Positions 4,737 through 60,252 of a stretch of 64,000 nt of DNA are shown piece by piece. The stretch covers positions 351,961 through 415,960 of the forward strand of contig JBFWNL010000002.1 in assembly GCA_050251055.1 (NCBI GenBank), read 5' to 3'. Positions within the stretch are counted from its first letter, which is position 1. Each line of letters opens with the position of its first letter. The translations under genes were made by a program, and so were the position numbers. This DNA comes from Bacteriovoracia bacterium (lineage in GTDB: Bacteria; Bdellovibrionota; UBA1018; JBFWNL01). A model generated the notes under the pieces. That model was given only the letters and a program-made list of their open reading frames with translations. It did not search any database and had not been told where the DNA came from.

Positions 4737-4746
4737 TCGACGCGAG

Positions 4747-28734: not shown

Positions 28735-28760
28735 GTTAAACGATCCGACCGATCTCAAAA

Positions 28761-28797
28761 AGGCGGGACGCCCTAAACGTCCCGCCTTTTTTATTTT
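28761..28797 (+). terminator. Rho-independent terminator
   Basis: aggcgggacg / cgtcccgcct stem with ccctaaa loop, followed by tttttatttt. Confidence 0.85.
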
Positions 28798-37841: not shown

Positions 37842-37977
37842 CAGAGCGGTTTACTCCAAATAGTGGGGGTTTTCCAGCTGGAAGCCCGCGCGGGCTGGGC
37901 GGGATTTGCCTACCTCGGGCCCTCCGAGTCCGCGATTTTCCAATACGGATCGGTATGTTACACTCAAGTCATCAGCC

Positions 37978-42200: not shown

Positions 42201-42430
42201 TCAGAATCGAAATCTACGTGTAGGCGCTCGACCCCTCCCAAAAAAACCGTGCGGGAAAATGGAGAAGCCGTGATGACCGGAGCCCCGGCGACGGAAGCAA
42301 TGGAGCCCAGGTTTTGCTCGACCCAAGCGGATTGCGCTTCACGCGCCGAAGGCCGGGCTCCCAAATCCAAGCAACCCGTTTGTGCAATTAAAGACAAACT
42401 CACTAGTGAACGTACCGCGAATAACCGCAT
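39275..42430 (-). CDS. Large secreted multidomain protein (Ig-like/FN3-like modules plus one dockerin-like repeat pair)
   Basis: Signal peptide and lipobox-like LIAQTGC. GDINRDGQVDATDNATFLASWGTT...DLNGDGRVDSRDLPILLGNWG dockerin-type double Ca-binding repeat. >1000 aa of beta-rich domains. Confidence 0.6.
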   Translation of the reverse strand: MRLFAVRSLVSLSLIAQTGCLDLGARPSAREAQSAWVEQNLGSIASVAGAPVITASPFSRTVFLGGVERLHVDFDSESSASVAWRRNGLPLVGEAGPELVLFGHPDFAGSYEAVVSNAHGTTTSSPAVITVSPVPGDINRDGQVDATDNATFLASWGTTGGAADLNGDGRVDSRDLPILLGNWGRAPAVAELSPRIAEAPAGVTLVAGARLTLSARFYAVAGTPVQWLKDGAPLMASERVGITREFDSSTLTVESVEFSDAGEYSVRVGIDSRSVDTQTAQVQVTPEASSGLPVRLYPEPPVGGAITFHRHQNAFFEVAIDAPVPVGLTYQWYLDGRLLVDESVPPIGEHVRGSRDRVLSFSNVRAEIGTSRQVVGAWFTSVHRLSVQLREPSGRVTEAVLPAFYIDAHEDAHAVDTTVQLEAEVSASPARITVKWPQMSRSNQYQVYRKSLNDAQWTPISQPQWIMHADPFFPEYQSAVGFVDTGITVGQGYEYAVIGRNPSGTGIVRRGYLYTGIELPRVDSRGKLVLVVERTLAPILGPEIARLTADVEGDGWQVVRLDVDRHVDGNPDSCETIAGQSHCGRQVVRVRAAIQRAYQQDTINTKAVFLLGRVPVPYAGTKPITHDTYGAHPSDWFYGEMLKPVDLNCAQIPAGMSVYTYVRERAWTDCQANQSTVVTLPPPVPDRLRNVPGDGKFDQNEIPGFRAQLQVGRVDLSNMARPESQGLAFRRAGETDAQLEIRLLRRYLDKNHAYRIATFQVPSRALISDRLGAYENWPATDGWRNASPAVGPANIYSLPPTQRGLVPVLNQSPYLWVHGAGAGAFQGFNGASTDEYASQSTYGVFYTLIGSYFGDWDVQENFLRAPLAAEGYGLASTQGRLVNFFGQHLPMGFNLGYASLRSINNSWAAASPSSGYCFSATPPLYEGTLACPSLDSAPFAVPLMGDPTLRTQMVPGPSGVAAAVSGSTGARTVTLSWEPSAAAGVIYHVYRASASGGAFQRIGQTIATSYVQSAVVAGSYRYQVRALVKTVSASGSYWNNSTGMTISVSVP

Positions 42431-42540
42431 GTGATTCCCCCGTTTTGACTTAAAACCACCCGAGACTCCATCATCGGAAATTTTTGGTCGGCGGCGGATG
42501 TGTCAAACGGGATGAGGGAGTTATATGTATTCCGGCGTAT

Positions 42541-43650
42541 TCAAGGCAGCGGCTGGAGCACGTAGTTCCCGCCCAAGGTCGCTACGCTGCCGTTGGTTTC
42601 GATCGTACCGGTTTCGGTCAATACCCCATTCCCGGACACCGAGTAGGAACGGATCTTCTGCAGGGCGGGTTCGCTAATATAGAGAAATTTACCGCTCCTT
42701 GATAAAGCTAACACCCGATCCGGCCGCGAAGTAAGGGGCACCGTCTGGACGATTGTCGGTGCATAGGTCGTGGAATCGAAGGTGATCGCGTAGAGAGAAG
42801 CATCTTCGTCGACCGAGAAAAGAATGCCGTCGGCGCCAAACGCTCCACTCTGAAGGCCTAGGTCCGCAGTAGAAGAAACCAATCGGATGGTTTCCGAAGC
42901 ATAATCGATCGCGTAAACCTGCGTGGCCGGGACGCCCCCGTTTAAACGCACGACCAAGAAGCTCTCGTCATGCGCCATGAAGAGCGCTGAAATGCCCGCC
43001 GTGGCGGTGATCGTGGATGTAATGGATAAAGCCGGCGCGGAAGCATCGACCCGAACCATATGAAGCGAGGCGGGAGTGCCGACGACGACGAACGCGTAAC
43101 GGCCCCGCTGGGAATAGGCGGAGAGTGCGCTCGCGCCCTGGCCACCCAAGTCACCTGTGTACGCCAGTAGCGTATTGCTTGATCCGTCCGCCGCGATCTC
43201 CGAGAGATAGAGGTAAGAAGCCAAACCGGCGCCCAGCAAAGAAATGACTTTAGAGGTATCGGGAATCCAGTAGGCTCCCCGCCAACGGTGGGTGCCGTTC
43301 CCAAGGCTTTCACTGAAGACCGATTGCAGGCTCGCGGTCGCCGGGGTGAGCTGAAAAATAGTGGTAGTCGCGGCCGGACCCACGGCCCAGCCGAACGTGC
43401 CGGTGGAATCGAAAACCAGTTGGCTATTTCCGGTTCCGGTCGACGTTCCGGCGAGCGTCAACGCCCCCGATGACGGATCGATCGTGAAAACTCGATGTAG
43501 GTAGGCACCGGAGCTCAACACCGCAGCAATCAAGAACTCCTTCGCCAGTACTGGACGTTGGAAATTTGCCGAGCACCCGCTGACTAAAACCAGCAGTGCA
43601 CCGCCGAATCCTTGGATCAGTCGAACCCGTGAAGAAAAGTAGGTCCCCAT
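42541..43650 (-). CDS. Lipoprotein, 7-bladed beta-propeller (lactonase-like) fold
   Basis: Lipobox LVSGC. Repeated ~45-aa blade-like segments. Start chosen at M16 (43650) to avoid overlap with the upstream gene; the track start is 43695. Confidence 0.5.
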   Translation of the reverse strand: MGTYFSSRVRLIQGFGGALLVLVSGCSANFQRPVLAKEFLIAAVLSSGAYLHRVFTIDPSSGALTLAGTSTGTGNSQLVFDSTGTFGWAVGPAATTTIFQLTPATASLQSVFSESLGNGTHRWRGAYWIPDTSKVISLLGAGLASYLYLSEIAADGSSNTLLAYTGDLGGQGASALSAYSQRGRYAFVVVGTPASLHMVRVDASAPALSITSTITATAGISALFMAHDESFLVVRLNGGVPATQVYAIDYASETIRLVSSTADLGLQSGAFGADGILFSVDEDASLYAITFDSTTYAPTIVQTVPLTSRPDRVLALSRSGKFLYISEPALQKIRSYSVSGNGVLTETGTIETNGSVATLGGNYVLQPLP

Positions 43651-43676
43651 AGAGTATCGAAAGCATACGCCAAGTG

Positions 43677-45365
43677 TCATGACCGTGGAACGCAAATCGC
43701 CGTTGCTCTGGGTGGAGTGTCACAAGCACCTACCGCGTGTACATAAATCTCCCATAGTGCGCCGGCGGAAGTTCCGTTCGGCTTCACGAATCCCCAGGCT
43801 CCGGTGTCACATCCTCCCGTATGCATCCCGTTCAAAGTGCAACTATAGTTCGCCAAAGTCATTCCGGAGAGCGTGCAGGTAGTGCCGCCTGGAGTGGACG
43901 TAGTGTCCGTGCAGGTGTGCTCCGCCCAGGTGATGTTCGGAGTTGGCTGGACCGGTCGGCACTTAGGGCGGGTCAGACCACTCGTACCATCCAGCCCTTC
44001 CATCACCTGTCCGGCCGGGCACACGTAATGGAGCGGTACAAAATAAGAATGGCCGTTATTATCTTTTGTAAGGAATTTTTCAGAAGGCACGGGCGTATTC
44101 GATCCCACCGGTGATTTAAAATTAAATCCCGTATTGAAAACACAACCTGCTGGGGTCGACAAGTATCCCGGTTGCCCCACCCGACATTGCCCGCCACCGT
44201 GAGCCGGGACTTCGACCGAGTCTGCGACTAGTTTCTGACTAACGGTAACGTTGCCTTGAATGGAAACTCCACGAAAGTTACCGATGCCGAGATTTGTGAT
44301 CCCCCAGCTATAACCGCCACCAGAGTAGTAGCCGCCTCGTAGATTGCCGCCAATACTTAAACCTTGATCGTCGACATTGTAAGCCGTACCCGGACCCACG
44401 TTGGTTCCTGCGCTCGCGATGGCAAGCCTCGGAAAGACGCACCCCACGCCGGTTTGCCAGCTCCCGGTCAAAGCCTGGCAAACCGCTTCCCCGTCGGGAG
44501 CACCCGGCGCGCTCGGGGGCACCCCGGCCGGTGAGCGGCCAGAGAAAAGCTCGCAACCGGTAATCTGGCTACCGTTGGTTTGGACGGAAAGCAGGAACTC
44601 GTCTTGATACTCGGAGCCCCCCAGCGCGGCGAGATGACGCCCGGACGGATCCCCGGCGGCCGCCATTTGAAAGCGCGAAATGAACTCGTTCGTGGCTCCG
44701 GGTACTGGCACCGCATCGGCTAATCGCAACGTGGTTAGAACCAAGCCCGGCGTAAGCGGCCGTCCCCGACGAACGCTCACAGACCCGACTCGAAGCTCCT
44801 CGAAATCCACGGGGGAAAATGTTCCGCCACCTCCTCCCGAACTGCCGGATCCGGACGACGTTCCTCCCGGGCTCGTCGGCACGCGATTCCAGTTTCCTAG
44901 TAAGACCGCGAGGTCAGGGGATCCGACTCGCCCATCGTGATTCAAGTCGGCCGGAAGCGAAGGGCCGGTCGCGTTCCAAGCGCCGAGCATTAGGGCAAGA
45001 TCTGGAGAGCCGACTAACCCGTCGCCGTTGATGTCGCCTTCGGCAGCTGTTCCCGGTACGGGAGGAGCCGTCCCGGAAGCGCCTGCGAAAGATGTACCGC
45101 CTAAATTGGCCGTACAAGCTTTAGCTAGGATGAGTTTTACTGAGTTCGCGGTGTCCTGGAACTCCGCCACCTGGGTGACCTTCTTCGATCCGCGCAGGCT
45201 CTGGGTGGTGATCTGGGTTTGGGTGGCAAGCAAGATTCCCATCAAGCCCATCGCAACCAGCACCGAGATCAAGGATTGGCCATTGGACGAAAAGAAATTA
45301 GACTTCAATTTTTCCCCCGTAGAAACGAAAAAGCAAGGCGGCACGGAGCGAGGATTCTGGGGCAT
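43677..45365 (-). CDS. Pilin-like N-terminal helix fused to dockerin-like repeats and a large Gly/Ser-rich beta domain
   Basis: N-terminus NGQSLISVLVAMGLMGILLA resembles a type IV pilin/pseudopilin hydrophobic helix (Q and S replace F1 and E5). GDINGDGLVGSPDLALMLGAWN...DLNHDGRVGSPDLAVLLGNWN dockerin-type repeats. Confidence 0.5.
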   Translation of the reverse strand: MPQNPRSVPPCFFVSTGEKLKSNFFSSNGQSLISVLVAMGLMGILLATQTQITTQSLRGSKKVTQVAEFQDTANSVKLILAKACTANLGGTSFAGASGTAPPVPGTAAEGDINGDGLVGSPDLALMLGAWNATGPSLPADLNHDGRVGSPDLAVLLGNWNRVPTSPGGTSSGSGSSGGGGGTFSPVDFEELRVGSVSVRRGRPLTPGLVLTTLRLADAVPVPGATNEFISRFQMAAAGDPSGRHLAALGGSEYQDEFLLSVQTNGSQITGCELFSGRSPAGVPPSAPGAPDGEAVCQALTGSWQTGVGCVFPRLAIASAGTNVGPGTAYNVDDQGLSIGGNLRGGYYSGGGYSWGITNLGIGNFRGVSIQGNVTVSQKLVADSVEVPAHGGGQCRVGQPGYLSTPAGCVFNTGFNFKSPVGSNTPVPSEKFLTKDNNGHSYFVPLHYVCPAGQVMEGLDGTSGLTRPKCRPVQPTPNITWAEHTCTDTTSTPGGTTCTLSGMTLANYSCTLNGMHTGGCDTGAWGFVKPNGTSAGALWEIYVHAVGACDTPPRATAICVPRS

Positions 45366-45517
45366 ATCCCGGGGGCCTCCGGGATCAAAGGAACGTCCGC
45401 ACCGCCCTGCTCTTTCTTCTCCTACTAACTTGCTACGATTCGTTTCCCTTTTCGATTATTTCTGATCAAAAAAATCCACTTTTGTATTCCTACGTATTCC
45501 ACGTCCATTTTCCCTAT

Positions 45518-45748
45518 TCAAACCGGGTCGTTCCGTACAAAATAGCTGAGGCATTGAGCCGTGTCCGTAATTCTCGGAGCTTCCGGAAGCAATGCCTCCA
45601 ATATCGCCGCGATTTCCTTGACCGGAGTTTCCTCAAACTCAGATGACCCGTTTTCGGCGCGGCTGGTGGTGGCCACCCATACCACCAGCCAACTGCAGAC
45701 CGCTATCCGCCTCAATCTATGTCGACTCATGCTAGATCTTTCTTTCAT
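45518..45748 (-). CDS. Possible small secreted protein (76 aa)
   Basis: ORF with basic N-region plus hydrophobic stretch. Lies inside the GTATTCC repeat region. An alternative plus-strand ORF (45561-45752) covers the same DNA. Confidence 0.2.
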   Translation of the reverse strand: MKERSSMSRHRLRRIAVCSWLVVWVATTSRAENGSSEFEETPVKEIAAILEALLPEAPRITDTAQCLSYFVRNDPV

Positions 45749-45834
45749 TTAACTACCTTTATCTCAGATAACCGCGGCTATACTTACGATCAGCTAGGTC
45801 GCGGACTCGTCTCGAAACGTGACTTCTATTCCTT

Positions 45835-46209
45835 TCACCACCAGTGACAGTGGTAGGTATGCGCGGGCTGGACCTCGCACCCATATGCGCGCGCCATACA
45901 AAACGTGTGTCGAAGTATCAAACGCAGGTTGATACAGGCGTTGGGATTGACTTGGTACTCCGTCAAGTCGAGGCAATTATTGAACTCGCAAAACCCAGCT
46001 TGCGCTTCCAATGCGGCCTCGATGGCCTCACAGTTTGTTGTCCAATCCGGCGTGAAGTCCCGACATAGTCCATCCTCCTGATCTGCGAAAGGATCCATGA
46101 ACTGTTCGGGCTCGGGGGGGCCTACAAAACCGGGATCTGGATCTCCCGCCGCCGAGTGGGCCACCAAAAAAACGATTAGCGCCAAGAACAATGCACGAAC
46201 TCGGTTCAT
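45835..46209 (-). CDS. Small secreted cysteine-rich protein (8 Cys, 124 aa)
   Basis: Signal peptide MNRVRALFLALIVFLVAHSAAG. Acidic mature region with 8 cysteines. Ends ...HCHWW. Confidence 0.5.
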   Translation of the reverse strand: MNRVRALFLALIVFLVAHSAAGDPDPGFVGPPEPEQFMDPFADQEDGLCRDFTPDWTTNCEAIEAALEAQAGFCEFNNCLDLTEYQVNPNACINLRLILRHTFCMARAYGCEVQPAHTYHCHWW

Positions 46210-46456
46210 CTCGCCTCCTCCTTCATGAGTGATTCACAAAACGATAAGGCCCGGGGAGAGAAAAATCCTTCAACTTGCCAGGGCTACGGACGTATCCGTA
46301 TTCGGCGGTATTCCAAACGACGACGAGCGCCTGTATTCCGAAACCCGACGGAAAACCCCCCCTCAATACAACGACTTGGCAGGGGAAATCCCCGCTGGAA
46401 TACAGGCCAAATTCGACACATTCCGCACACCCCTTTGTTTCTGGTAACTTAGGCAT

Positions 46457-47341
46457 ATGACCACTCGTAGTACGTTAGAGCGGCCATGCATCTTTGAATA
46501 CAACGACTACCGCCGCTACTTGAAGGACTTCTACGCCCATAAAAAGAGCCAGAAAGGCGCGGGGTTTTCCTTTCGCTCGCTCGCGAAAGCCGCGGGCTAT
46601 AGCTCGCCGAACTTCTTCAAGCTCGTGATGGACGGACAGCGTAATATGTCCGACGAGAGCATCACCCGCATCGCGCTGGTGCTCAAACTCAGCAAGCAAG
46701 AAGCCGTATTTTTCTTTAGCCTAGTTCACATGAACCAGGCGCAGACGAGCGAGGAGCGCGAGCGTTTCGCGGCGGAACTGATGAACAGTGCCGGATTCCG
46801 CAAGATCCACCCGCTCAAGGAGGCCCAATATAACTTTTACGCGAAGTGGTACATCGCCCCGATCCGTGAGCTCATCGCCACGGCTGACTTCCAAGAAGAC
46901 CCGGAATGGATCGCGAAGCAGATGACCCCGCCGATCACCGCGCGGGAGGCGAAAGTCGCGCTCGACGAGCTCCAAACCCTGGGTATGGTCCGCCGTGACG
47001 AGTCCGGCCGGTTGCTCCAGGTGAACAACCTCGTGAACACGTCGGACGAAGTGATGTCGACTTCCTTGAGCCGCTACCACAAACAAATGATCCGCCTAGC
47101 CGGCGAATCGATCGACCGTTTTTCCCGCTACGAGCGGGAGATTTCCAGCGCGACTCTGTCCGTTTCCGAGGATTGCGCTAAGAAGGTGAAACAGCTCATC
47201 CAAGAGTTTCGCGAACAGATCTTGCAGCTCGCCGCCGAGGACACCTCGACTTGCGAGCGGGTGTACCAAGTCAACTTCCAGTTGTTTCCCATGTCCGGGA
47301 AACCAGGGGGAACCGGGGGGACGAGCAATGGAGCCGTTTGA
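46457..47341 (+). CDS. Putative DNA-binding protein with XRE-like HTH (TIGR02147-like family)
   Basis: FSFRSLAKAAGYSSPNFFKLVMDGQRNMS fits a helix-turn-helix. Family-typical N-terminus YNDYRRYLKDFY. Family name recalled from memory, not searched. Confidence 0.5.
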   Translation: MTTRSTLERPCIFEYNDYRRYLKDFYAHKKSQKGAGFSFRSLAKAAGYSSPNFFKLVMDGQRNMSDESITRIALVLKLSKQEAVFFFSLVHMNQAQTSEERERFAAELMNSAGFRKIHPLKEAQYNFYAKWYIAPIRELIATADFQEDPEWIAKQMTPPITAREAKVALDELQTLGMVRRDESGRLLQVNNLVNTSDEVMSTSLSRYHKQMIRLAGESIDRFSRYEREISSATLSVSEDCAKKVKQLIQEFREQILQLAAEDTSTCERVYQVNFQLFPMSGKPGGTGGTSNGAV

Positions 47342-47894
47342 TTCACGCTTTTTCCGCGGCAGCGCGGTACTGACCTTGCTGATCACATCCGCTTGCTCCG
47401 TGGGAGGTGGCGGCGGCGGAACTTCCGCCAGCAGCGCCGACTTCGGCGGTTCCGGCGCCGGAAACCCTATTACATTTTCTGAAAACTTCGCCGTGCGGCT
47501 CTGTGAAAGCACCGCCGGGATCCCGATTGATGGCTTGGACGCCCGCGACTGTGCTAACTCGGCGATGGACCATGTCGACATCACGCCCGCCTTGGGATTG
47601 CCCACGGTCATCGACACCCTTCGCCTCGCTAAACGGCTCGAGCTAGAAGGACGCTTGCGGCCCGGTCCCGACGCCGGAGCTTGCTTGGCTCAGATGAGCG
47701 GAGAGAGTTTCTGCAACATCGACATCGCGGTCGAAAGTTCCGGTGGCGGCGCGTACTCGTCGAACAGCTTCGAGCTGCCGGTGGAAACTCCCGTCGTGTC
47801 CTGCTACATCCCTCCGGTATGCCGGCAGGTCTTCAAACGGGTTCGCGGAATGGATTCCATCGACGCGCTCACGCCTCCTGCCTTATCGCCTTAG
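47328..47894 (+). CDS. Putative cysteine-rich lipoprotein
   Basis: Signal peptide with LITSAC, followed by a Gly-rich linker. 8 cysteines. Confidence 0.45.
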   Translation: MEPFDSRFFRGSAVLTLLITSACSVGGGGGGTSASSADFGGSGAGNPITFSENFAVRLCESTAGIPIDGLDARDCANSAMDHVDITPALGLPTVIDTLRLAKRLELEGRLRPGPDAGACLAQMSGESFCNIDIAVESSGGGAYSSNSFELPVETPVVSCYIPPVCRQVFKRVRGMDSIDALTPPALSP

Positions 47895-48006
47895 TAGTTT
47901 CGGACAGGATACGCCGGAATACGTTTCCCATTCGCGCGCGATCGGCATCGTTGAGCCAAAGCCAAAAACCGCGCATCCTACCTAAGATAGCATCAAGGGG
48001 GGATTC

Positions 48007-50769
48007 ATGCACACGTATGCAGATGGACGGGCGGGCAGCTCGACCTTGACTCTACTCGTGCTTTTCGCGGCGGCTGGCGCGACGGCCTGGACATATATCG
48101 GCTCTGCGCATTGGCAGCTGGCCGCGTTCTCGCACCGGACTCTAGAAACCTCGCGCATCGAGAACGACCTACGCAATTTTGCGAACCGAGTCATGCCGCT
48201 CGTAAAGAACTCCGCCTGCGGCGCTCCCGGAGACTGGCGCGAGCTTCGTTTCTTGCCTTCGGCGGGCACGCCCATCCCCCCACCCCTCGAGGGAGATGTC
48301 AATGACGACAATCGGGTCGACTCGGCGGACCTTGGAATCGTATTGGCCACTTGGGGGCAAGTACCAGGATATGTTCCGGGACAGCCTTCCATTCGCTCCG
48401 ATTTCAACCGGGATGGACTGGTGAACTCCGTCGATCTAACGGTGATCCTCTCGCATTGGGGTGATCGGCGCGATCCACCGGCGGACGACGAAAATAGCGT
48501 ACCCGTGGTCGGCCCGGCCGGCGTCCGCGCCTGGTGCCAACTGCCCGCGAACGGGGGGGCCCAGGACAAAGTCGCGAAGTTCTCCCGCTTCCAACCTTCC
48601 ACTTCTACTCAGAACGCATTAATTACGATTCACGTCGCCTGGCAGGAAGTTCCCGCCGCCTATCCAGGAGTTGGCGGATGGAACGACTACATTCGCGTCA
48701 CGGAACCGACCCGACCCATTTATCAACAAACCAGCGCGACCTCCGACTGCACGGTCAATGGTAATCAAAGTGCGAGCATCTGCGTCCATGCCGGGGAGCT
48801 ACGCCGATTTGTTTTTCGCCACCACCGCACCTGTGGGGATATCCGTATCGAAGACGCATTAAACGCATTCCGATGGGAATGCCAGGATCAGGACGGATTC
48901 GTAACCGCGTACTCACTAGGACTGCGGCCCGGACGCGGACTTAAGGACTTAGTCGACCTCGGGGGCTGGAAGCAAAATTCCGTCCGCCTCGTTAGTCGTC
49001 TTCACGCGACCCTGGTGGCGGAAACCGCCCGTTCCGCTTGGTGGAGAAATCCCGTGCGGAATATTCCCGCTTCCGAACCCGATGCCGTTTCTCCCGTCCA
49101 ACTCGGAGGGGAAGTGGGAACGATCTGGATCGCCGAGCGTCATTCCACCGCACCGGGATACCGCGTTACCGCCGATCGAGCGGCGGTGGTCACCCTGCCC
49201 GGCGCATCCTTGGGTTACCGATCGCGGGATCCGAATGCAACTCCTTGCCATGATTCAACCGTCGGGACCAATTTCCGTTGCGTAATCTTCACCGACGAAG
49301 GGATGGGCGAACGGCGTCATCTTTGGATCGAAGCCGACATCGTATCCTCCAACAACGATGGTCACGCCTGGTTCGCCCTGGTACCGACGGCCCACGCCAG
49401 CTCCGGCTCCTCAGCTTCGATCGGCGTGTTTCTGCAGAATACCCATCTCTCGCGGATTCACCAACTAAGGGTAGTCGGCGTCTCCGGGCAAGACGGAGAT
49501 TCTTGCCGTGGAGGGGACGGACTGCGGCTGTCGGGGTCCCACGGCAACCGGGTGACGGAAGTCGAGCTAGCGACGAATTCTTGCTACGGCATGAATCTCT
49601 CGGCCTCGAACGGGAACTATATTCATCGGCTGCGCGTCGCAAACAACGGCGCGGGAGTCCGGCTGTGGAACTCGCGGCAAAACAGGTTCACTCACCTGAT
49701 AGTCTCGAATCACGGCAATATACTCGATCCTCAGGCCGGCGTGGGACTGCGCATCGGCGGAGCCACTCCGGCCGAAGGCGGGGAGAACGTCGTCCAGCAA
49801 GCGACAATTTTCTCCAACTCGGGCGACGGCATTCGATTGGAGTCCGCGCGCAATTACTTGGTGGCCGTGACCACGGCGCAAAATCGCAATGGCGTTATGG
49901 TCACGGGGGCCGAAAACGTAATTCACAATCTAACGGCCCATCGCAACCTCGACGCCGGAGTTCGTTTCTTTGGCGGTGGAGGCCGGACGATCAGTCACGT
50001 AGTGAGTAGTCGAAACCGCAATATGGGAGTTTCCGTCGCGGCCACCGACGCAGCCTACGGGGTGGACATTTTTCGCGGGCTCCTAGTATTGGGCCAAAAC
50101 GGCCAGAATTGCCTGGGCTTTCCGGAGGACCCACGCGCGCCCATACAAACCGGCGAAAGCTGCCTGCTTCGGGACGCCACGGGTATAGTACAACTGGGTG
50201 CGGACACGGAAGCAAGTTTTCTAGGCCCATTGATGGAAGACGATTCCGTAAACTCGTCGGATCTGGCGGGCGGTGCCGTCGTCGGTATCGCGCCGCCCGA
50301 CTTTGACTGGTTCGGCTTCGCTTCCGCCAGACGGGCGTGGGGCCAAGCGGACCCTCACCGCGCCGAACTCTGTGGCAGCTGTCGCATTTGGGACTGGGAC
50401 CTCAGCCCCCTACCGGCTTCTCCCCTTTACCGGCACACTGCCCGGGGAATCGCCGGGATCCAAAGCGAATTTCCCTCGCTTCCGGACCAGGCCTGCCCGC
50501 CGGAGTTAAGTTCTCCGGAAAATGTCACACACCACGGAAGTGTCGGTTATCTTACCGTCGCGATCGAAGTGTCTGGGGACGTCGGCATATCCATGGGAAA
50601 CGACAACGGTATATGCGAAACTTCGGAGCGCTGCATCTACACGCCCAACTTCGGATCCGACCAGAACGACGGTCGACCGAACTCGATCGAGCAAACTTGC
50701 CAGCTCGAAGATCTGCCCGAGTTCAGAAATATGCGAGTTCACGGCTTCACGTGGGGAAATCAGCTATGA
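48007..50769 (+). CDS. Giant secreted protein: pilin-like N-terminal helix, dockerin-like repeats, right-handed parallel beta-helix (PbH1-like) repeats
   Basis: N-terminus GRAGSSTLTLLVLFAAAGATAW. GDVNDDNRVDSADLGIVLATWG...DFNRDGLVNSVDLTVILSHWG dockerin-type repeats. Tandem ~22-aa repeats (NNGAGVRLWNSRQN / SNSGDGIRLESARN / QNRNGVMVTGAEN / HRNLDAGVRFFGG) typical of pectate-lyase-like beta-helices. Cysteine-rich C-terminus. Confidence 0.6.
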   Translation: MHTYADGRAGSSTLTLLVLFAAAGATAWTYIGSAHWQLAAFSHRTLETSRIENDLRNFANRVMPLVKNSACGAPGDWRELRFLPSAGTPIPPPLEGDVNDDNRVDSADLGIVLATWGQVPGYVPGQPSIRSDFNRDGLVNSVDLTVILSHWGDRRDPPADDENSVPVVGPAGVRAWCQLPANGGAQDKVAKFSRFQPSTSTQNALITIHVAWQEVPAAYPGVGGWNDYIRVTEPTRPIYQQTSATSDCTVNGNQSASICVHAGELRRFVFRHHRTCGDIRIEDALNAFRWECQDQDGFVTAYSLGLRPGRGLKDLVDLGGWKQNSVRLVSRLHATLVAETARSAWWRNPVRNIPASEPDAVSPVQLGGEVGTIWIAERHSTAPGYRVTADRAAVVTLPGASLGYRSRDPNATPCHDSTVGTNFRCVIFTDEGMGERRHLWIEADIVSSNNDGHAWFALVPTAHASSGSSASIGVFLQNTHLSRIHQLRVVGVSGQDGDSCRGGDGLRLSGSHGNRVTEVELATNSCYGMNLSASNGNYIHRLRVANNGAGVRLWNSRQNRFTHLIVSNHGNILDPQAGVGLRIGGATPAEGGENVVQQATIFSNSGDGIRLESARNYLVAVTTAQNRNGVMVTGAENVIHNLTAHRNLDAGVRFFGGGGRTISHVVSSRNRNMGVSVAATDAAYGVDIFRGLLVLGQNGQNCLGFPEDPRAPIQTGESCLLRDATGIVQLGADTEASFLGPLMEDDSVNSSDLAGGAVVGIAPPDFDWFGFASARRAWGQADPHRAELCGSCRIWDWDLSPLPASPLYRHTARGIAGIQSEFPSLPDQACPPELSSPENVTHHGSVGYLTVAIEVSGDVGISMGNDNGICETSERCIYTPNFGSDQNDGRPNSIEQTCQLEDLPEFRNMRVHGFTWGNQL

Positions 50770-54438: not shown

Positions 54439-54565
54439 AAACCACGCAAAATCGGGCTTTTTTGTCAGTATTTTCGCCGAACTATCTGGTTGATTCGTAA
54501 TTTCCAATGTGGAATAGTGTTGATCCGTAACGTTCAATAAATCCTAAAAACGAAAGGAACCTCGC

Positions 54566-55828
54566 GTGGGACGCCTTGATTTCGGCAGGCACGCATCCAT
54601 CTGGATCGGCGCGGTCCTCGTTGGCCTCGCCGCGGTCCTCTACGCGAGCTTGGTTAACGTCGCCCAGGAAACCTTCTTCCGTTGGTTTGGAGCTCACTCC
54701 ATTCTTACCTCGGCGGCGGCGCCCTTCGCCTTCCTTATCGCCACCTGGATCGTGCGCCACTTTGCGCCGCACGCCAAAGGCAGTGGGATCCCGCAGGTGC
54801 TCGAAGCGGTTGAGGCCGGACGCCGACCGGGAGAGGAACATCTCGCGTGGGCTTCTCCCCTGGTTTCCCTGAAAACCGCGGTTTTCAAGGTTTTGTCCTC
54901 CGCGGTGGGCATCCTTGGCGGAGCCTCCATCGGGCGCGAGGGCCCAACCGTCCAAATCGCGGCATCGGTTTTCGCATGGGTAGGGAGGCGCACGCGCCGG
55001 TTTGTTCCCCACGTCGAGTTACCTTCTTACTTGATGGCGGGAGCGGCGGCCGGCGTCGCGGCGGCGTTCAACACCCCGCTGGCCGGGATCACCTTCGCGA
55101 TCGAAGAGGTCGCCGACGGAGTGATCGGACCGTTCCGCCAACCCATGATCCTCGCCGTGATCATCTCCGGCATCACCGCCCAAGCGCTCATCGGAAACTA
55201 CCTCTACTTCGGCCGTCCGGCCGTATCTTCGCCGGACTTGCACGTCGCCTACCAAGCCATCATCATCGGTCTGGCGGGAGGCCTCGGAGGCGGCGTGTTT
55301 TCACGTTTGCTTGCCTTCCCCAAGGTCGTTCGGCTACCCACCCATTGGGCCATTCGCGCCTTCGTCTGCGGGGCCATCTGTGCGCTCATCGCGTATCTCA
55401 GCGATGGGGCCACGGCCGGGTCGGGCTACGAAGCGACCCAGCGCGCGCTGAACTCGTCGTCGGTCGAAGACGCGAGCGTCCTGGCTCCGGTTTGGAAAAT
55501 GACCACCACGGTGTTGTCCTATTTAGCCGGCATGGCGGGCGGGATTTTCTCCCCTAGCCTTTCCATCGGCGCAGGAATTGGGATTTCCATCGCGAAGCTC
55601 CTGCACTTCGTGAATTTTCGCACGTGCGCGCTGATGGGCATGGTCGCTTTTTTTTCCGGCGTGGTCCAGGCCCCCCTCTCCTCGGTGGTCATCGTAATGG
55701 AGATGACGGATCGCCACAGCCTGATCCTCCCCTTTCTCGTGGCGGCGTTTATCGGCCAGGCCGTCGGCAGGCTGCTCATGCCGGTTCCGCTTTACCACTT
55801 TTTAGCGAAACGAAACGACGAAGCTTGA
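54566..55828 (+). CDS. ClC-family voltage-gated chloride channel/antiporter
   Basis: GSGIPQV and GREGPTVQ selectivity-filter motifs. Multi-transmembrane. GTG start. Confidence 0.8.
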   Translation: MGRLDFGRHASIWIGAVLVGLAAVLYASLVNVAQETFFRWFGAHSILTSAAAPFAFLIATWIVRHFAPHAKGSGIPQVLEAVEAGRRPGEEHLAWASPLVSLKTAVFKVLSSAVGILGGASIGREGPTVQIAASVFAWVGRRTRRFVPHVELPSYLMAGAAAGVAAAFNTPLAGITFAIEEVADGVIGPFRQPMILAVIISGITAQALIGNYLYFGRPAVSSPDLHVAYQAIIIGLAGGLGGGVFSRLLAFPKVVRLPTHWAIRAFVCGAICALIAYLSDGATAGSGYEATQRALNSSSVEDASVLAPVWKMTTTVLSYLAGMAGGIFSPSLSIGAGIGISIAKLLHFVNFRTCALMGMVAFFSGVVQAPLSSVVIVMEMTDRHSLILPFLVAAFIGQAVGRLLMPVPLYHFLAKRNDEA

Positions 55829-55876
55829 TGAAACCCCTTAGCAAAAGCGCGGTTTCTGCGCTAAGGTCCGGGCTCC

Positions 55877-56956
55877 ATGGATAATCCAATGATGAAATGG
55901 CTGGGCGCAAGCGCGGATAAAGCCCCCCTTGCTTGGCTCATCATTTTTGCGACTTCCCTGCTCGTAACCCTGATTCTGAAGCTCGTCCTCCGGATCGTCT
56001 CCGGCCGACTCAGAAAACTCGCCGGAAGGGCGCCTACCATCTGGGCATCGGTCGGGTTGGACCTCGTGGACGGGCTGCGCGGATGGGTTCTTCATATCGG
56101 GACCTTCTACGTCTTGTCGCGGCCGCTGCCAGGAGAGGCCATTATTCACCGCGCGCTTTGGACGCTCACCGTTTTCGCGTCGTCTTTCCAGCTAGCGCTT
56201 TGGGGACTTCATCTGATTCGAAACTGGCGAAAAGCTTTCCTGGAAAGACGCGTGGAAAGCGACCCTTCTTCCTCCGCCGCCATCGGATTGATCTACAAAG
56301 CCATGCAGGCGGCTTTTCTCCTGCTGATTCTCATGATCGCCATGAGCAATCTGGGGATCGACATCAGCGCGCTGATCGCGAGCTTAGGCGTCGGCGGCAT
56401 CGCCGTCGCGCTCGCGGCCCAAAACGTACTGGGAGATTTATTGGCTTCCTTGTCCATCGTCTTCGACAAGCCCTTCGTAGTAGGCGACTTCATCGTTGCG
56501 GGTGACGCGCGCGGAACCGTCCTGCAGATCGGGATCAAGACCACGCGCCTGCGCAGCCTTTCCGGCGAAGAACTCGTGCTATCAAACAAGGATCTTCTCG
56601 AGAGCCGCATCCAGAACTTCAAACGAATGCAGGAACGGCGAGTGGTCCAGAAATTCGGGATCCTCTACTCCACGCCGGCCGAGAAAATCGAACAGGTCTC
56701 CGGGTGGGTACGCCAAATCATCGAGGCCCGGCCGAAGCTCCGTTTCGACCGCTGCCACTTCGCCGCCTACGGCGACTCATCGCTCGACTTTGAGTTCGTT
56801 TTTTACGTGCTCAATCCGGATTACAACGCTTTCATGGATCTCCAGCAGGAAGTACTGCTCGCCATGTTCCGGAAGTTTCGCGAAGAAGGCGTGGATTTCG
56901 CCTTCCCGACCCGCACGCTCTTTATCGAAAAGTCGGCAACGCCCACCGCGACGTGA
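55877..56956 (+). CDS. Mechanosensitive ion channel, MscS family
   Basis: Transmembrane helices followed by the MscS beta-domain pattern (GDFIVAGDARGTVLQIGIKTTRLRSLSGEELVLSN). Confidence 0.75.
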   Translation: MDNPMMKWLGASADKAPLAWLIIFATSLLVTLILKLVLRIVSGRLRKLAGRAPTIWASVGLDLVDGLRGWVLHIGTFYVLSRPLPGEAIIHRALWTLTVFASSFQLALWGLHLIRNWRKAFLERRVESDPSSSAAIGLIYKAMQAAFLLLILMIAMSNLGIDISALIASLGVGGIAVALAAQNVLGDLLASLSIVFDKPFVVGDFIVAGDARGTVLQIGIKTTRLRSLSGEELVLSNKDLLESRIQNFKRMQERRVVQKFGILYSTPAEKIEQVSGWVRQIIEARPKLRFDRCHFAAYGDSSLDFEFVFYVLNPDYNAFMDLQQEVLLAMFRKFREEGVDFAFPTRTLFIEKSATPTAT

Positions 56957-56978
56957 TCCCGCGACCTAAAGGTTCGCC

Positions 56979-57440
56979 TTAGCGCGCGCGCTCTAGCGCC
57001 TGCCGAGCGAATGCCTCATCCTCGGCGGCCGTGGCGCCACCGACGCCGATGCCGCCGATTTTCGGGCCCTTGCCCTCCACGGGCAGGCCACCGGCCACCG
57101 CCATCACGCCCGCGGCGGTGACGATCCCCAGATTTCCCCCACTCACCGCCTCGGCAAAGGCAGAAGTGGGCCGACGAAACGCGTTCGCGGACCGCGCTTT
57201 CTGGATCGCCGTCTCGATGCTGCCCAGATGGGCGCAAGCGTCGCGCTCAAAATAAAAAAGGTGTCCCCCTTCGTCCACGATCGCCACCGAAACGCACTTC
57301 CCCGCTTTGCGGGCGGCGCCGATCGCCTCACGGGCGAGGGTCGACGCGCTCTGGGCGGGATCGGGATTACCGGCAGACCAGGCCGGCGCGGTGGACAAAA
57401 CCAACCCCATCACTAAAACCAACGCGTAGATCATTTTCAT
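56979..57440 (-). CDS. Secreted GlcG/DUF336 (heme-binding-like) protein
   Basis: Signal peptide. DUF336 pattern (VAIVDEGGHLFYFERDA ... GGLPV..GK.IGGIGVGG). Confidence 0.6.
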   Translation of the reverse strand: MKMIYALVLVMGLVLSTAPAWSAGNPDPAQSASTLAREAIGAARKAGKCVSVAIVDEGGHLFYFERDACAHLGSIETAIQKARSANAFRRPTSAFAEAVSGGNLGIVTAAGVMAVAGGLPVEGKGPKIGGIGVGGATAAEDEAFARQALERAR

Positions 57441-57482
57441 GCTTCGTTACCTCGGGGGACAAAGTACGCTTTGTGGTTAAAT

Positions 57483-57497
57483 TAGTAAAATTTACTA
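57483..57497. promoter_or_regulatory. LysR-type operator-like palindrome TAGTAAA-A-TTTACTA (T-N11-A box) in the divergent intergenic region
   Basis: Perfect 7-bp inverted repeat in the AT-rich region between the glcG-like gene and lysR. Confidence 0.45.
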
Positions 57498-57531
57498 TTT
57501 TTATTTTAATAAGTAGTTATACTAATTATAA

Positions 57532-58380
57532 GTGAACCTGCACCGGCTCCGCTACTTTTACGATTCGGCTCGCCTGGGCTCGACCACCGAGGCCGCGCGC
57601 GCGAACTTCATCACCCAGTCGGCGGTCAGCCAGGCCATCCGGGCTTTGGAAGACGACCTAAACGGCCAGCTCATTTACCACCGAAAGAACTCCTTCGAAC
57701 TCACGCCTACCGGTCAGGTCGCCTATCGCGAATGTCAATCCATCTTCGGCGCCATCGACAACTTCCGCGCTACGCTTTCCAAAACCGCCGAAAAAGTTTC
57801 AGGACAGCTGGCCATCGCCGCCACCAACAGCATCGCCCTTACGGCGCTGGCCACGCCGCTCGCGAAGCTAACCCAGAGACACCCGGAGCTATCCTTGCAG
57901 CTAAAGCTAGGGAACTCGGATCAAGTGAAAGATCATCTTCGCCGACGCGAAGCCGAACTAGGCTTCCTGCTCGAAGACGACGACCTATCGGAGTTCGACG
58001 CCACGGCGATTCGCGAGGGCCGCTTCCAGATCGTGGCGTCGCCAAAGTTCAAGGCGAGGCGCCCCCTTGAAGGCGTGATCATCACGCGGCCCCATAAGGT
58101 CGAAGTGCGCCACTTGCAGAAGCAGTTCGAAAAGGCGTTTGGCAAGCCACTCGTTTTTCCGATGGAAGTGTTCAGCTGGGAACTCATCCGCCAACTTTGT
58201 TTGGATGGTGCGGGGCCCGGCTATTTGCCCGATTACCTGATTCGCCAGGAGCTGGCGTCCGGGAAGCTCAAAGTCCTCCACCCTGAGCTAAAACCCTGGA
58301 AGTACAAGCTCCTGGCGATTCGGTTGAAAGGGCGCGTGCCGAGTCGCAACGCCGGGGCACTGCTAGACGCCGTCAGGTAA
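57532..58380 (+). CDS. LysR-family transcriptional regulator
   Basis: N-terminal HTH LHRLRYFYDSARLGSTTEAARANFITQSAVSQAIRALE. LysR substrate-binding domain. GTG start. Confidence 0.8.
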   Translation: MNLHRLRYFYDSARLGSTTEAARANFITQSAVSQAIRALEDDLNGQLIYHRKNSFELTPTGQVAYRECQSIFGAIDNFRATLSKTAEKVSGQLAIAATNSIALTALATPLAKLTQRHPELSLQLKLGNSDQVKDHLRRREAELGFLLEDDDLSEFDATAIREGRFQIVASPKFKARRPLEGVIITRPHKVEVRHLQKQFEKAFGKPLVFPMEVFSWELIRQLCLDGAGPGYLPDYLIRQELASGKLKVLHPELKPWKYKLLAIRLKGRVPSRNAGALLDAVR

Positions 58381-58445
58381 ATTGGGGATTCGTCCACCGC
58401 CTCGACAGTCATGGCACTTTTCGAAACTACAAAGAATCTATCGTC

Positions 58446-58766
58446 ATGGCGGGGCCCCGCTACAACCCCACCCACCGTGGTCTGCTCGGTCCCTTCATCG
58501 CGCTGAAGGCGGGCTATGGCTACGCATCCGGTAACCGCGGCAGCTTCTTCGGGGAAGGAGAGCTCTACACCTGCCAAGAGCTAGTGCTCCAGCCCGAGGG
58601 GGGATACACCTTCCTCCTCGGAAGAAACATCAGTGCAACCGCGGGCGCCGGCTTCATGGCCGTCGTTCCGCTAGCTACCGAAAACCCCGTGGAGTGGAGC
58701 ACGTTGGGCATTCTCGTTCACCGCTTCGTCCCCGTGGTAAACTTCTCGCTCAGTCTAGCGCTCTAA
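58446..58766 (+). CDS. Hypothetical small protein (106 aa)
   Basis: ORF only. Gly-rich. Downstream of lysR. Confidence 0.25.
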   Translation: MAGPRYNPTHRGLLGPFIALKAGYGYASGNRGSFFGEGELYTCQELVLQPEGGYTFLLGRNISATAGAGFMAVVPLATENPVEWSTLGILVHRFVPVVNFSLSLAL

Positions 58767-58897
58767 CTCCGAAACACGCTTCGGCACTTCATGCGCCTAC
58801 GCCGTCCCGCAGATAAGGCGCGCACCCTGCCTACTCCACCGTAAATTCCCCGGCGGCGAACGCGTGGTCGAACTCGAGGCTCTCTTCGCGCCAGCGG

Positions 58898-59110
58898 AGG
58901 AGCCACCACTTCTCAACCCGCCCGCAGAGAACTTCCTGCCCCACCGCCCATCCTGAAAAGTATCTTCGTACGAGGGGGCGTCCCCGGGCCAGGATGGCGC
59001 TGAGGGGTCGAGCGCATGGATGCGCGTCCCCCTCGTACGAAGATACTTTTCAGGATGGGTGGTGGGATGAAAGATTGTTTGTGCGCGGGTTGAGAAGTGG
59101 TGGCTCCTCC
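58898..59110. repeat. Imperfect long inverted repeat (two conserved blocks of ~26 and ~36 nt per arm, ~45-nt central spacer) whose right arm includes the tRNA-Leu 3' end
   Basis: Block 1 plus-strand copy 58898-58923 ggaggagccaccacttctcaacccgc vs revcomp of the second copy ggaggagccccacttctcaacccgc. Block 2 cccatcctgaaaagtatcttcgtacgaggggg (plus-strand copy 58948-58979) vs gtccccctcgtacgaagatacttttcaggatggg (plus 59026-59059, reverse-complement orientation). Confidence 0.75.
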
Positions 59111-59183
59111 GAGACTCGAACTCGGACACCCGTGAGGATACTGGATTTTGAGTCCAGCGCGTCTACCAATTCCACCAAGGAGC
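59100..59183 (-). tRNA. tRNA-Leu (anticodon CAA), type II with long variable arm; CCA not encoded
   Basis: Manually folded: acceptor GGCTCCT/AGGAGCC, D-loop GAATTGGTAGA, anticodon stem CTGGA/TCCAG, loop CTCAAAA, 15-nt variable arm, T-arm CCGAG-TTCGAGT-CTCGG. Confidence 0.85.
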
Positions 59184-59223
59184 CACGACGGATTGCGTCG
59201 AAAATATACTGACTGGATCTTTT

Positions 59224-60252
59224 CTAGCTTAGCCAGCTCCAGCTGAGAAGCTCAAATTTACCGGAAGCGCTCAATTTATAGTCCGCCTGGAGCGGGAGCG
59301 GCGTGTAATTGGGACCATGACCGGCGGGCAATCCTACCGCGACCGGGATACCGAGCCGATCCCCCAAAGCCCCGAAGATTTCCTGAAAAGCCTTGGCCTG
59401 AGCAAACTTCGCCCGGAGGGGCTTGAGCTCGGCCGGCTTGGGATTCTTCAAAGCTCCTTCCACACGCGCCGGTTTCGGTGCCTTAGCGAGGAACATCGGG
59501 CTGCTGTCCCCACAGTCGAGAAAGTCCCCCAGCACGATTGCCCGCACATTGCGGAATCCACGCGCCTGCTCGAGCTGCTGGATCATGCGGTCGATTCGGC
59601 TCACGCTCTCGGCGATGTCTTCCAGAAACAAGATCTTGCCCCGACCGCCTTCGGGCTCATAAACCGGAGCGTACGGCGTACCTAACAGCGAATTCCAAAC
59701 CGCGAGATTGCCACCCACCAGCAGTCCGTCCACGTCCGTCTTGGGTTTTGCGCCGATAAACTTCAGACGCTTGCCTTGCCACGTCGCGGTCTGCGCGCGT
59801 CTTTGTACCCACTCGAGCGCGCACTTCCAGTCGGGCTTTTTCATTAACAGGAAAGATTTCGACGCCGGCATCGGGGCGTGCAAGCAATCCCACCCCCACC
59901 GATCGGCCACGAACGCGTGCAACACCGTTACGTCGGAATAACCCACCAGCAGCTTCCGCCGCGGCTTCCCTTCTTCGGCCGTCCAGCGGTCGAGATACGG
60001 TAGCAGGTGGTTCGCGCCATACCCGCCGCGCGCCGACCAGATCACGTCGAAACGCGAGTCGTGGGCGTAATCAAAAAACGCGCGCGCGCGCTCCTCCGTC
60101 GAGCCGGCGAAAACAAAGTCCCGCTTCTTCACCGCAGGGTGTACGACGGGTTCCACTCCGGAAGCGCGCAGGCGTTCGAGCGCGATCTGGAACTCGACTT
60201 GGGGTACGATCGAAGACGGCGCCACGACGCCGATGGGAAACGGGCGTTTCAA
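59224..60252 (-). CDS. ldcA: LD-carboxypeptidase (peptidase S66, LdcA/MccF-like)
   Basis: N-terminal IGVVAPSS motif, GGYG, and a C-terminal S66 domain. Start chosen at TTG 60252 (TTGA overlap with the engB stop). The track start at 60330 would overlap engB by 82 nt. Confidence 0.65.
   Translation of the reverse strand: MKRPFPIGVVAPSSIVPQVEFQIALERLRASGVEPVVHPAVKKRDFVFAGSTEERARAFFDYAHDSRFDVIWSARGGYGANHLLPYLDRWTAEEGKPRRKLLVGYSDVTVLHAFVADRWGWDCLHAPMPASKSFLLMKKPDWKCALEWVQRRAQTATWQGKRLKFIGAKPKTDVDGLLVGGNLAVWNSLLGTPYAPVYEPEGGRGKILFLEDIAESVSRIDRMIQQLEQARGFRNVRAIVLGDFLDCGDSSPMFLAKAPKPARVEGALKNPKPAELKPLRAKFAQAKAFQEIFGALGDRLGIPVAVGLPAGHGPNYTPLPLQADYKLSASGKFELLSWSWLS

Follow-up and report, generated by a model that had tools for sequence, protein, structure and literature searches.

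How does a chromosomal tRNA gene come to face an inverted copy of its own 3′ end, and does the long palindrome that results belong to a mobile element, to an integration site, to a functional RNA or to none of these? This question is raised by a tRNA-Leu(CAA) gene of a Bacteriovoracia bacterium represented by metagenome-assembled genomes (MAGs). We analyzed the gene within the 64-kb stretch of contig JBFWNL010000002.1 that contains it (64,000 nt, hereinafter the window) and compared it with the orthologous loci of related bacteria.

Architecture of the palindrome and its tRNA gene

In the window, the repeat finder detected a single inverted repeat whose arms measure 30 nt or more, the palindrome adjoining tRNA-Leu(CAA). 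Its arms are 84 nt long and 86% complementary, and are separated by a spacer of 49 nt (Table 1). A preliminary description of this DNA, made from the letters alone, had pointed to an inverted repeat beside the tRNA gene and to an inverted copy of the tRNA end some 190 bp away; both are real, and the perfectly matching outer part of the copy measures 14 nt of tRNA plus 13 nt of trailer. The distance between the CCA and the inverted CCA is 190 nt, as measured in a second contig, L002, which is identical here save for the single SNP described below. The arrangement is tail-to-tail, that is, the inverted copy lies downstream of the 3′ end of tRNA-Leu(CAA).

Table 1. Coordinates of the palindrome, its parts and the adjacent genes in the window
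Feature	Position	Strand	Description
106-aa ORF, no Pfam match	58446..58766	+	Convergent with the tRNA; also called as a gene in L236
Distal arm	58895..58978	+	Inverted copy; reads CGGAGGAGCCACCA, then trailer
Outer perfect block	58895..58921		27/27 matches; pairs with 59085-59111
Diverged patch	58922..58939		18 nt, 11 mismatches (9 transitions); pairs with 59067-59084
Inner block	58940..58978		39 nt, 38/39 matches; pairs with 59028-59066
Spacer	58979..59027		49 nt, asymmetric, with a small local hairpin
Proximal arm	59028..59111	-	14 nt of tRNA 3′ end (59098-59111), then 70 nt of 3′ trailer
tRNA-Leu(CAA) gene, intact	59098..59184	-	ARAGORN; Rfam RF00005, 54.6 bits, E = 1.7e-10
LD-carboxypeptidase (LdcA) gene	59224..60252	-	Directly upstream of the tRNA; anchors the conserved synteny

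The tRNA-Leu(CAA) gene, the only tRNA gene that ARAGORN predicts in the window, encodes both the discriminator A and the CCA, its own 3′ end reading ...GGAGGAGCC-A-CCA (also given as ...GAGTCTCGGAGGAGCC-A-CCA). The preliminary description had assigned to this gene a defective end, AGGAGCC-C-CAC, and to the distal copy the better CCA, but both statements go back to a misread strand. The gene lies on the minus strand and encodes a normal A-CCA, what stands at 59178-59189 of the plus strand, AGGAGCCACGAC, complements the 5′ acceptor strand of the tRNA together with its leader, and the two copies of the tRNA end are identical. The possibility that remains of a second, degenerate tRNA precede the distal arm was rejected as well, since the similarity ends at 14 nt.

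The two arms align without gaps and in register over all 84 nt, and their alignment falls into three parts. The outer block joins the 14 terminal nucleotides of the tRNA, CGGAGGAGCCACCA, to 13 nt of the 3′ trailer, CTTCTCAACCCGC, and is followed by the diverged patch and the inner block. A second conserved block within the arms had been recognized previously, at 34 of 35 matching positions; the block exists, and its size had been understated. The perfect run of 32 nt that it contains occurs twice in the window, against zero occurrences expected. The arms differ at 12 positions in all, of which 10 are transitions, and 11 of the 12 differences are confined to the single 18-nt patch, a degree of clustering that was encountered in none of 200,000 random placements (p<5e-6). 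Within the patch, 9 of 11 differences are transitions, compared with the one-third expected for unrelated sequence (P(>=9 of 11) = 0.0014). Given that the arms are in register and that transitions dominate their differences, they appear to represent one duplicated segment rather than two unrelated sites, and are, judging from this alignment, homologous along their full length, the diverged patch included. The tRNA-side version of the patch is A/T-rich. On either RNA strand, the mismatches would yield G.U and A.C pairs in about equal numbers, so that the differences between the arms do not preserve pairing. The spacer lacks symmetry about the centre of the palindrome, and inspection of its sequence at that centre revealed no obvious seed hairpin. 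Because the tRNA part of the proximal arm is under selection, this arm is probably the source from which the distal arm was copied.

The palindrome sits between two convergent transcription units, the 106-aa ORF on the plus strand and tRNA-Leu on the minus strand. The genes that precede it encode a CLC channel, MscS, an HbpS-like protein and a LysR regulator, followed by the 106-aa ORF; those beyond it are tRNA-Leu, LdcA, an MMR_HSR1-domain GTPase that is taken to be EngB, a sigma-54 activator and FliL. The neighbours of the palindrome are ordinary chromosomal genes. Two ORFs that run over the palindrome itself, 58797-59129 on the minus strand and 58994-59212 on the plus strand, were dismissed because both overlap the tRNA.

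Palindromes are a known class of artefact, and several contigs of short-read (Logan) assemblies break in or near the region: L236, assembled from run SRR27751816, ends exactly at 58978, the inner end of the distal arm, and L001 and L003 stop at 59148, inside the tRNA. Nevertheless, a fold-back chimera created during assembly or amplification appears extremely improbable. The palindrome is imperfect and internal to the window, and it is carried by three assemblies of this MAG lineage, which the LdcA protein assigns to Bacteriovoracia. The separate NCBI MAG contig L002 (GCA_050185745.1) contains the whole palindrome with a single SNP, an A->C change at 58916 that falls in the outer block of the distal arm only, and L236, which is 100% identical to 54532-58978, covers the distal arm. 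With regard to an invertible DNA switch (inverton), L002 alone among the independent assemblies extends across the spacer, and the segment flanked by the inverted repeat is oriented there as in the window; L236 ends at the edge of the spacer. The ends of the Logan contigs appear to be repeat-induced breaks of the assembly graph, with L236 seemingly breaking, at 58978, where the 32-nt perfect repeat ends, and the break at 59148 plausibly caused by tRNA sequence common to other members of the community.

The tRNA-Leu(CAA) locus in related lineages

The comparison set consisted of 19 distinct lineages, that of the window and 18 others in which LdcA is followed by tRNA-Leu(CAA). In the relatives, the tRNA gene terminates a conserved block, ACCA-x-FliL-sigma54 activator-GTPase-LdcA-tRNA-Leu(CAA), with LdcA about 45-55% identical; the nearest LdcA homologue is 55% identical. 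In every relative, the tRNA gene marks the break of synteny, and the genes beyond it are different each time. The inverted copy of the tRNA end is missing in 17 of the 18 other lineages, L004 being the sole exception. The preliminary description had proposed this comparison and had held that the same inverted repeat at all related tRNA-Leu(CAA) loci, as a conserved terminator-like structure, would count against its own reading; such conservation was not observed. Across the 19 lineages, the trailers have no sequence in common, with the exception of the sub-clade pair L006 and L232. The end of a common insertion sequence (IS) after the tRNA was considered for this pair and rejected, since what the two have in common is an ancestral trailer, over about 140 nt and with 88% identity.

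The arms in L004 (JGI 3300037471, positions 5182-5231 and 5324-5373) are 50 nt long and 98% identical, with a 92-nt spacer. They comprise 12 nt of the tRNA end, GGGGAGCCACCA, and 38 nt of an AT-rich trailer that is unrelated to the trailer in the window, and differ by a single mismatch, a G->A change in the distal copy. The distance between the CCA and the inverted CCA is 168 nt, as against 190 nt in the lineage of the window. None of the nearest relatives of L004 (L008, L233, L231, L232 and L006, with LdcA identity of 77-86%) has an inverted copy. The unrelated trailer, the near identity of the arms and the absence of the copy in the closest relatives together indicate that the event in L004 was independent and recent.

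Less extensive structures are found after the tRNA in several of the other lineages. In L233, L012 and L235, plain short terminator hairpins come right after the CCA, and in L009, a two-block quasi-palindrome of 45 nt starts 10 nt past the CCA and stops short of the tRNA. Two suggestions concerning L009 did not hold: that its palindrome reaches its own tRNA was rejected in view of this starting point, and a kinship between it and the inner block of the window, noticed by eye, was not supported by blastn. Long local inverted repeats are rare in this material: three were found in approximately 0.4 Mb of unbiased sequence (the estimated unbiased share of the 1.49 Mb scanned), and two of the three are the tRNA-Leu trailers described here.

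Possible links to mobile elements, attachment sites and RNA elements

The tRNA-Leu(CAA) gene is used by integrative elements in this clade. In L034, a tyrosine integrase (PF00589, E = 1.1e-22) is encoded 222 nt downstream of a tRNA-Leu(CAA) gene whose last 12 nt are identical to those of the window tRNA. In L040, 21 nt of the tRNA 3′ end and 32 nt of trailer form a 53-nt direct repeat (89% identical, 174 nt from start to start) that spans the tRNA end and the terminator and resembles a scar of integration, and in L232, an ISL3 transposase adjoins the tRNA. These observations, along with the gene content past the tRNA that differs in every lineage and with the similar boundaries of the inverted repeats inside the tRNA (14 nt in the window and 12 nt in L004), are compatible with the palindrome being the scar of site-specific recombination at a tRNA attachment (att) site. 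Under this scenario, an integrase would nick or recombine the 3′ end of tRNA-Leu(CAA), and a secondary rearrangement or fold-back repair would leave behind an inverted copy of the core and its flank. The palindrome indeed resembles the att sites of tyrosine integrases in that it joins a tRNA 3′ end with the adjacent flank, and its block of 27-50 nt is of the size of an att identity segment.

Overall, however, the evidence makes an origin of this kind unlikely. Integration of circular elements gives rise to direct rather than inverted repeats, whereas the arms of the palindrome are inverted, with the two copies only about 190 bp apart; a direct repeat of the tRNA 3′ segment was not found in the window, where its sole other copy is the inverted one. 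An additional inversion would not keep the arms in register through the 39-nt inner block, and they remain in register far past any core. Moreover, 50 large ORFs distributed over the window were compared with Pfam and gave housekeeping or other non-mobile families, or no match, and no integrase, transposase or recombinase domain; the GC content exhibits no island-like shift over 44-64 kb of the window. Searches with sequences of the palindrome were equally negative: the 23-nt motifs of the inner and outer blocks have no exact match in 2.9 million viral contigs, and the 241-nt palindrome used as a blastn query has none in phage or plasmid records.

The attP hairpin of CTX-phi and the attC sites of integrons provide another comparison, since they too contain two inverted copies of a recombination-target-like sequence, separated by about 100-200 nt and enclosing an unpaired bubble, as does the palindrome. 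The likeness is one of analogy only: the palindrome has no adjacent phage or integron genes and no recombinase, and in place of dif or attI the putative target is the end of a tRNA.

The same searches bear on the suggestion, made in the preliminary description, of an element akin to miniature inverted-repeat transposable elements (MITEs). The arms do resemble long terminal inverted repeats, the palindrome, like REPINs and MITEs, is intergenic and a long inverted repeat able to form a hairpin, and the inner block with its spacer (131 nt) is REPIN-like in size and shape; in addition, two Flavihumibacter loci that were fetched, L122 and L131, have MITE-like inverted ends in common. We nonetheless regard the insertion of a non-autonomous mobile palindrome, MITE or REPIN-like, beside the tRNA as very unlikely. 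Pattern searches with the inner- and outer-block motifs located no second locus in the 64-kb window, and a scan of 185,579 species genomes with the 23-nt motif of the inner block yielded no exact match, which, together with the viral contigs already mentioned, leaves the palindrome single-copy where searched. No target-site duplication is present, the flanks 58885-58894 (TTCGCGCCAG) and 59112-59121 (AGACTCGAAC) being unrelated, and no transposase is encoded nearby. The right end of the palindrome lies within an intact, functional and essential tRNA gene, and the arms in L004 are unrelated in sequence to those in the window.

A generic pattern, GAGCCACCA-N160-190-TGGTGGCTC, was also searched in viral contigs and in genomes. 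The 20 viral matches were due to chance or, in the case of L108, to an unrelated inverted repeat, and none of them is located beside a tRNA; in this noisy scan of genomes, no further tail-to-tail case appeared among the matches listed (at least 120, nearly all by chance). A different geometry was encountered in the same scan at L143, where a tRNA-Thr gene has an inverted copy of its own 3′ half on its 5′ side. In the literature, the only case of an inverted copy of a tRNA end that we found is a distant inversion in Thermococcus (PMC9897764).

The preliminary description also offered a structured RNA as an explanation. As RNA, the palindrome region is predicted to fold at -192 kcal/mol (z = -13.7 relative to shuffled sequences), and the L004 region at -150 kcal/mol (z = -11.6). 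These extremely stable predicted folds, the location of the palindrome between convergent transcription units and the emergence of the same architecture twice, in the window and in L004, can be cited in favour of a selected RNA element, carried either by the primary transcript of tRNA-Leu or by the 3′ UTR of the ORF that converges on it. Such an element could act as a giant terminator or processing hairpin in which the 3′ end of the tRNA would stay masked by the distal strand up to endonuclease cleavage in the A/U-rich patch. The patch leaves the tRNA-proximal strand A/U-rich and unpaired, which would suit an entry site of the RNase E type, and such sites are known in E. coli tRNA trailers (PMC2811032).

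Still, a selected RNA element is improbable in light of the remaining evidence. Any long inverted repeat must fold into a very stable RNA. In Rfam, only the tRNA is significant, the other matches (E of about 0.8-1) being far under the gathering thresholds; the trailer sequence is not conserved over the 19 lineages, and the architecture is present in only two of these. The pairing is not kept by the mismatches, as described above, and compensatory changes are lacking: the changes in the distal arm, namely the SNP at 58916 in L002 and the G->A change in L004, are uncompensated. No terminator-like site with a U-tract was detected in 58300-59600, although canonical terminators occur elsewhere in the genome, for example at 28757-28791 of the window. 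In L004, a GC stem and a U-tract precede the distal tRNA-complementary segment, which accordingly may not be transcribed from the tRNA promoter. Like the Rho-independent terminators of tRNA genes, the palindrome is a trailer hairpin at the end of a transcription unit, and E. coli leuX, the orthologous tRNA-Leu(CAA) gene, is followed by a 7-bp stem and then a U-tract (PMC2811032). However, the stems of E. coli tRNA terminators are 7-13 nt long and come with U-tracts (PMC2811032), whereas the palindrome has 84-nt arms, a 49-nt spacer and no U-tract, and its stem includes the 3′ strand of the tRNA acceptor and the CCA.

A proposed local inverted duplication at the tRNA 3′ flank

The explanation that we favour, with a confidence only somewhat above even, is that the palindrome arose by local inverted duplication, or by expansion of existing arms, through template switching. 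Of the origins suggested in the preliminary description, the remnant of a rearrangement fits best, given that the arms are homologous throughout, the structure is lineage-specific and the tRNA gene coincides with the break of synteny. Several lines of evidence converge on a local duplication: the homology of the arms in register, the lineage specificity, a gradation of arm sizes among the relatives, the restriction of the changes to the distal arm, and the lack of any hallmark of a mobile element.

The first of these lines of evidence is what a quasi-palindrome displays, with ungapped arms in register, the proximal one of which holds the functional tRNA end. The state in the window is derived, the relatives having no copy, short hairpins or a shorter quasi-palindrome. 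These structures form a graded series, from hairpins after the CCA, through the palindrome of L009 that stops short of the tRNA, to arms that enter the tRNA by 12 nt in L004 and by 14 nt in the window. Finally, the two changes recorded in the tRNA-derived outer block, the SNP at 58916 in L002 and the G->A change in L004, both fall in the distal arm, as expected for a drifting copy.

Under the proposed mechanism, a nascent strand would switch template across the hairpin-prone trailer during replication or repair, such that the tRNA-proximal side is copied in reverse complement onto the distal side, with the copied tract running 14 nt into the acceptor/CCA end of the tRNA. Thereafter, the tRNA-side arm, the presumed source, would stay under selection, and the distal arm would drift as an unselected copy. 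That template switching was responsible, and that the trailer part was copied in this direction, is inferred. In bacteria and yeast, template switching is known to homogenise and extend the arms of inverted repeats and is favoured where DNA is highly transcribed (PMC5941160, PMC8604942, PMC13100816, PMC3820800).

A single duplication followed by uniform drift does not account for 11 of the 12 mismatches lying within 18 nt, and the clustering of transitions therefore calls for a second process, one that would have left the patch heavily diverged at a later stage. It may have been a patchy re-homogenisation that acted on an older quasi-palindrome, or else error-prone synthesis induced by the structure itself.

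In its reverse-complement register and its perfect tracts next to diverged ones, the palindrome resembles the products of quasi-palindrome template switching under the Ripley model (PMC5941160, PMC8604942, PMC13100816). The likeness extends to the location in a highly transcribed, hairpin-prone region and to the lineage specificity with smaller-arm intermediates in relatives. The differences are that arms of 84 nt far exceed the short inverted repeats that are usually studied, that the copied tract enters the 3′ end of a tRNA gene, and that the event is reconstructed here from its outcome. The palindrome is a further example of a kind of event that is already known, and not a new genetic system. 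It probably has no dedicated function; at most, and speculatively, it might serve as a hairpin for transcript ends or processing between the tRNA and the 106-aa ORF that converge on it.

The 3′ flank of tRNA-Leu(CAA) is a rearrangement hot spot in this clade, which would explain the similar independent event in L004. The end points of the two events are alike, both being located inside the tRNA, 12 nt in L004 and 14 nt in the window, at the junction of the acceptor and T stems, and this similarity could be a sign of site specificity instead of a random switch. If, in Bdellovibrionota, inverted copies of the tRNA-Leu(CAA) 3′ end were made or kept by a specific process, this would explain why two unrelated lineages have copies that end 12-14 nt into the tRNA, at distances of 168 and 190 nt. 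Possible forms of such a process include a folded single-strand att site, the break-repair footprint of a recombinase that cuts the acceptor/T-stem junction, and a cis-antisense segment that masks the 3′ end of the precursor. We consider the existence of a process of this kind decidedly unlikely.

For annotation, the palindrome calls for caution, because the distal arm is a tRNA fragment that could be mistaken for an att site. What distinguishes the palindrome is mainly that it incorporates a tRNA 3′ end and that such an arrangement has arisen independently at this tRNA in two distant lineages. Should this recurrence reflect a site-specific process, be it a recombinase footprint or a precursor-masking RNA, it would bear on the targeting and processing of tRNA genes. 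If local inverted duplication by template switching is the right reading, the locus is a natural example of a quasi-palindrome that has grown into the end of a functional gene without damaging it, and would provide a case study for short-range template switching and for tRNA 3′ flanks as hot spots of rearrangement.

Diverged patch and inverted tRNA-end copies

The two arms of the palindrome beside tRNA-Leu(CAA) are nearly identical except in one patch, where window positions 58922-58939 and 59067-59084 differ by 11 mismatches clustered within 18 nt, nine of them transitions. The tRNA-proximal version of this patch is A/T-rich, with a GC content of 33% against 61%. The palindrome of the related locus L009 has a comparable layout, with a diverged patch flanked by two perfect blocks.

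In the relative L004, the palindrome consists of 12 nt of the tRNA-Leu(CAA) 3' end and a 38-nt AT-rich trailer, which together form 50-nt arms that are 98% identical; the 92-nt spacer is GC-rich, in sharp contrast to the base composition of the arms, and contains two local hairpins. A further inverted copy, recovered by the pattern scan at locus L143, is a perfect 50-nt match to the 3' part of tRNA-Thr(CGT) along with 12 nt of its 3' flank and is located about 90 nt upstream of the 5' end of this tRNA; this head-to-head arrangement is unlike the geometry of the window palindrome. Two loci from one Flavihumibacter petaseus genome (L122:7650-7878 and L131:1560-1810) have in common MITE-like inverted ends (...CTGAGTGAAATGAGCCACCA...) located ~160-190 nt apart and probably represent a small mobile-element family without relation to tRNAs.

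Coordinates and database matches of the features discussed
Locus	Feature	Coordinates	Strand	Remarks
L004	palindrome	5182-5373		JGI 3300037471, Ga0395905_0001324; distant relative
L143	inverted copy region	3016-3242		Anaerolineales MAG CHLO-4, JASNZH010000011.1
L143	tRNA-Thr(CGT)	3028-3101	-
L040	direct repeat	1473-1699		53 nt, 89% identical, 174-nt period
L034	tyrosine integrase	3803-4816	-	PF00589, E = 1.1e-22
L232	ISL3-family transposase gene	4245-5390	-	~55 nt after tRNA-Leu(CAA)
Window	dockerin type I proteins	39275-42430; 43677-45365; 48007-50769		predicted

Sequence variation and other features of the window

The NCBI MAG contig L002, which carries the whole palindrome, stops inside the 106-aa ORF (region compared: window 58566-58618), and its last ~70 nt contain five mismatches to the window; L237, another contig from this MAG, is 100% identical to window 55817-58744. 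Together, these observations suggest either that strains differ within this ORF or that the assembly formed a bubble there.

Elsewhere in the window, a textbook bidirectional intrinsic terminator (28757-28791; A5-GGCGGGACG-loop-CGTCCCGCC-T5...) shows that canonical terminators are in use in the source genome. The region 39275-50769 encodes three large predicted proteins in which dockerin type I domains are combined with Ig or beta-helix domains; such surface or secreted machinery looks unusual in a Bdellovibrionota MAG. The ORF at 37906-39270 (+) strongly matches the Pfam family MATCAP (E = 2.9e-124), the microtubule-associated tyrosine carboxypeptidases, an unexpected name on a bacterial protein.

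Direct repeats and mobile elements at tRNA-Leu(CAA)

In the related locus L040, the repeat is direct, its unit encompassing 21 nt of the tRNA-Leu(CAA) 3' end, the trailer and a terminator hairpin; the two hairpins differ from each other, yet both still fold into stems. An att-like scar is one possible origin of this repeat, a small tandem duplication another.

Genes of mobile elements adjoin tRNA-Leu(CAA) in two other relatives. The loci L232 and L006 have in common ~140 nt of trailer (88% identity), so the insertion sequence of L232 lies inside or beyond the conserved trailer. In L034, where the last 12 nt of the tRNA are the same as in the window, a tyrosine integrase gene is located 222 nt downstream of the tRNA and is convergent with it, which shows that integrative elements use tRNA-Leu(CAA) in this clade.
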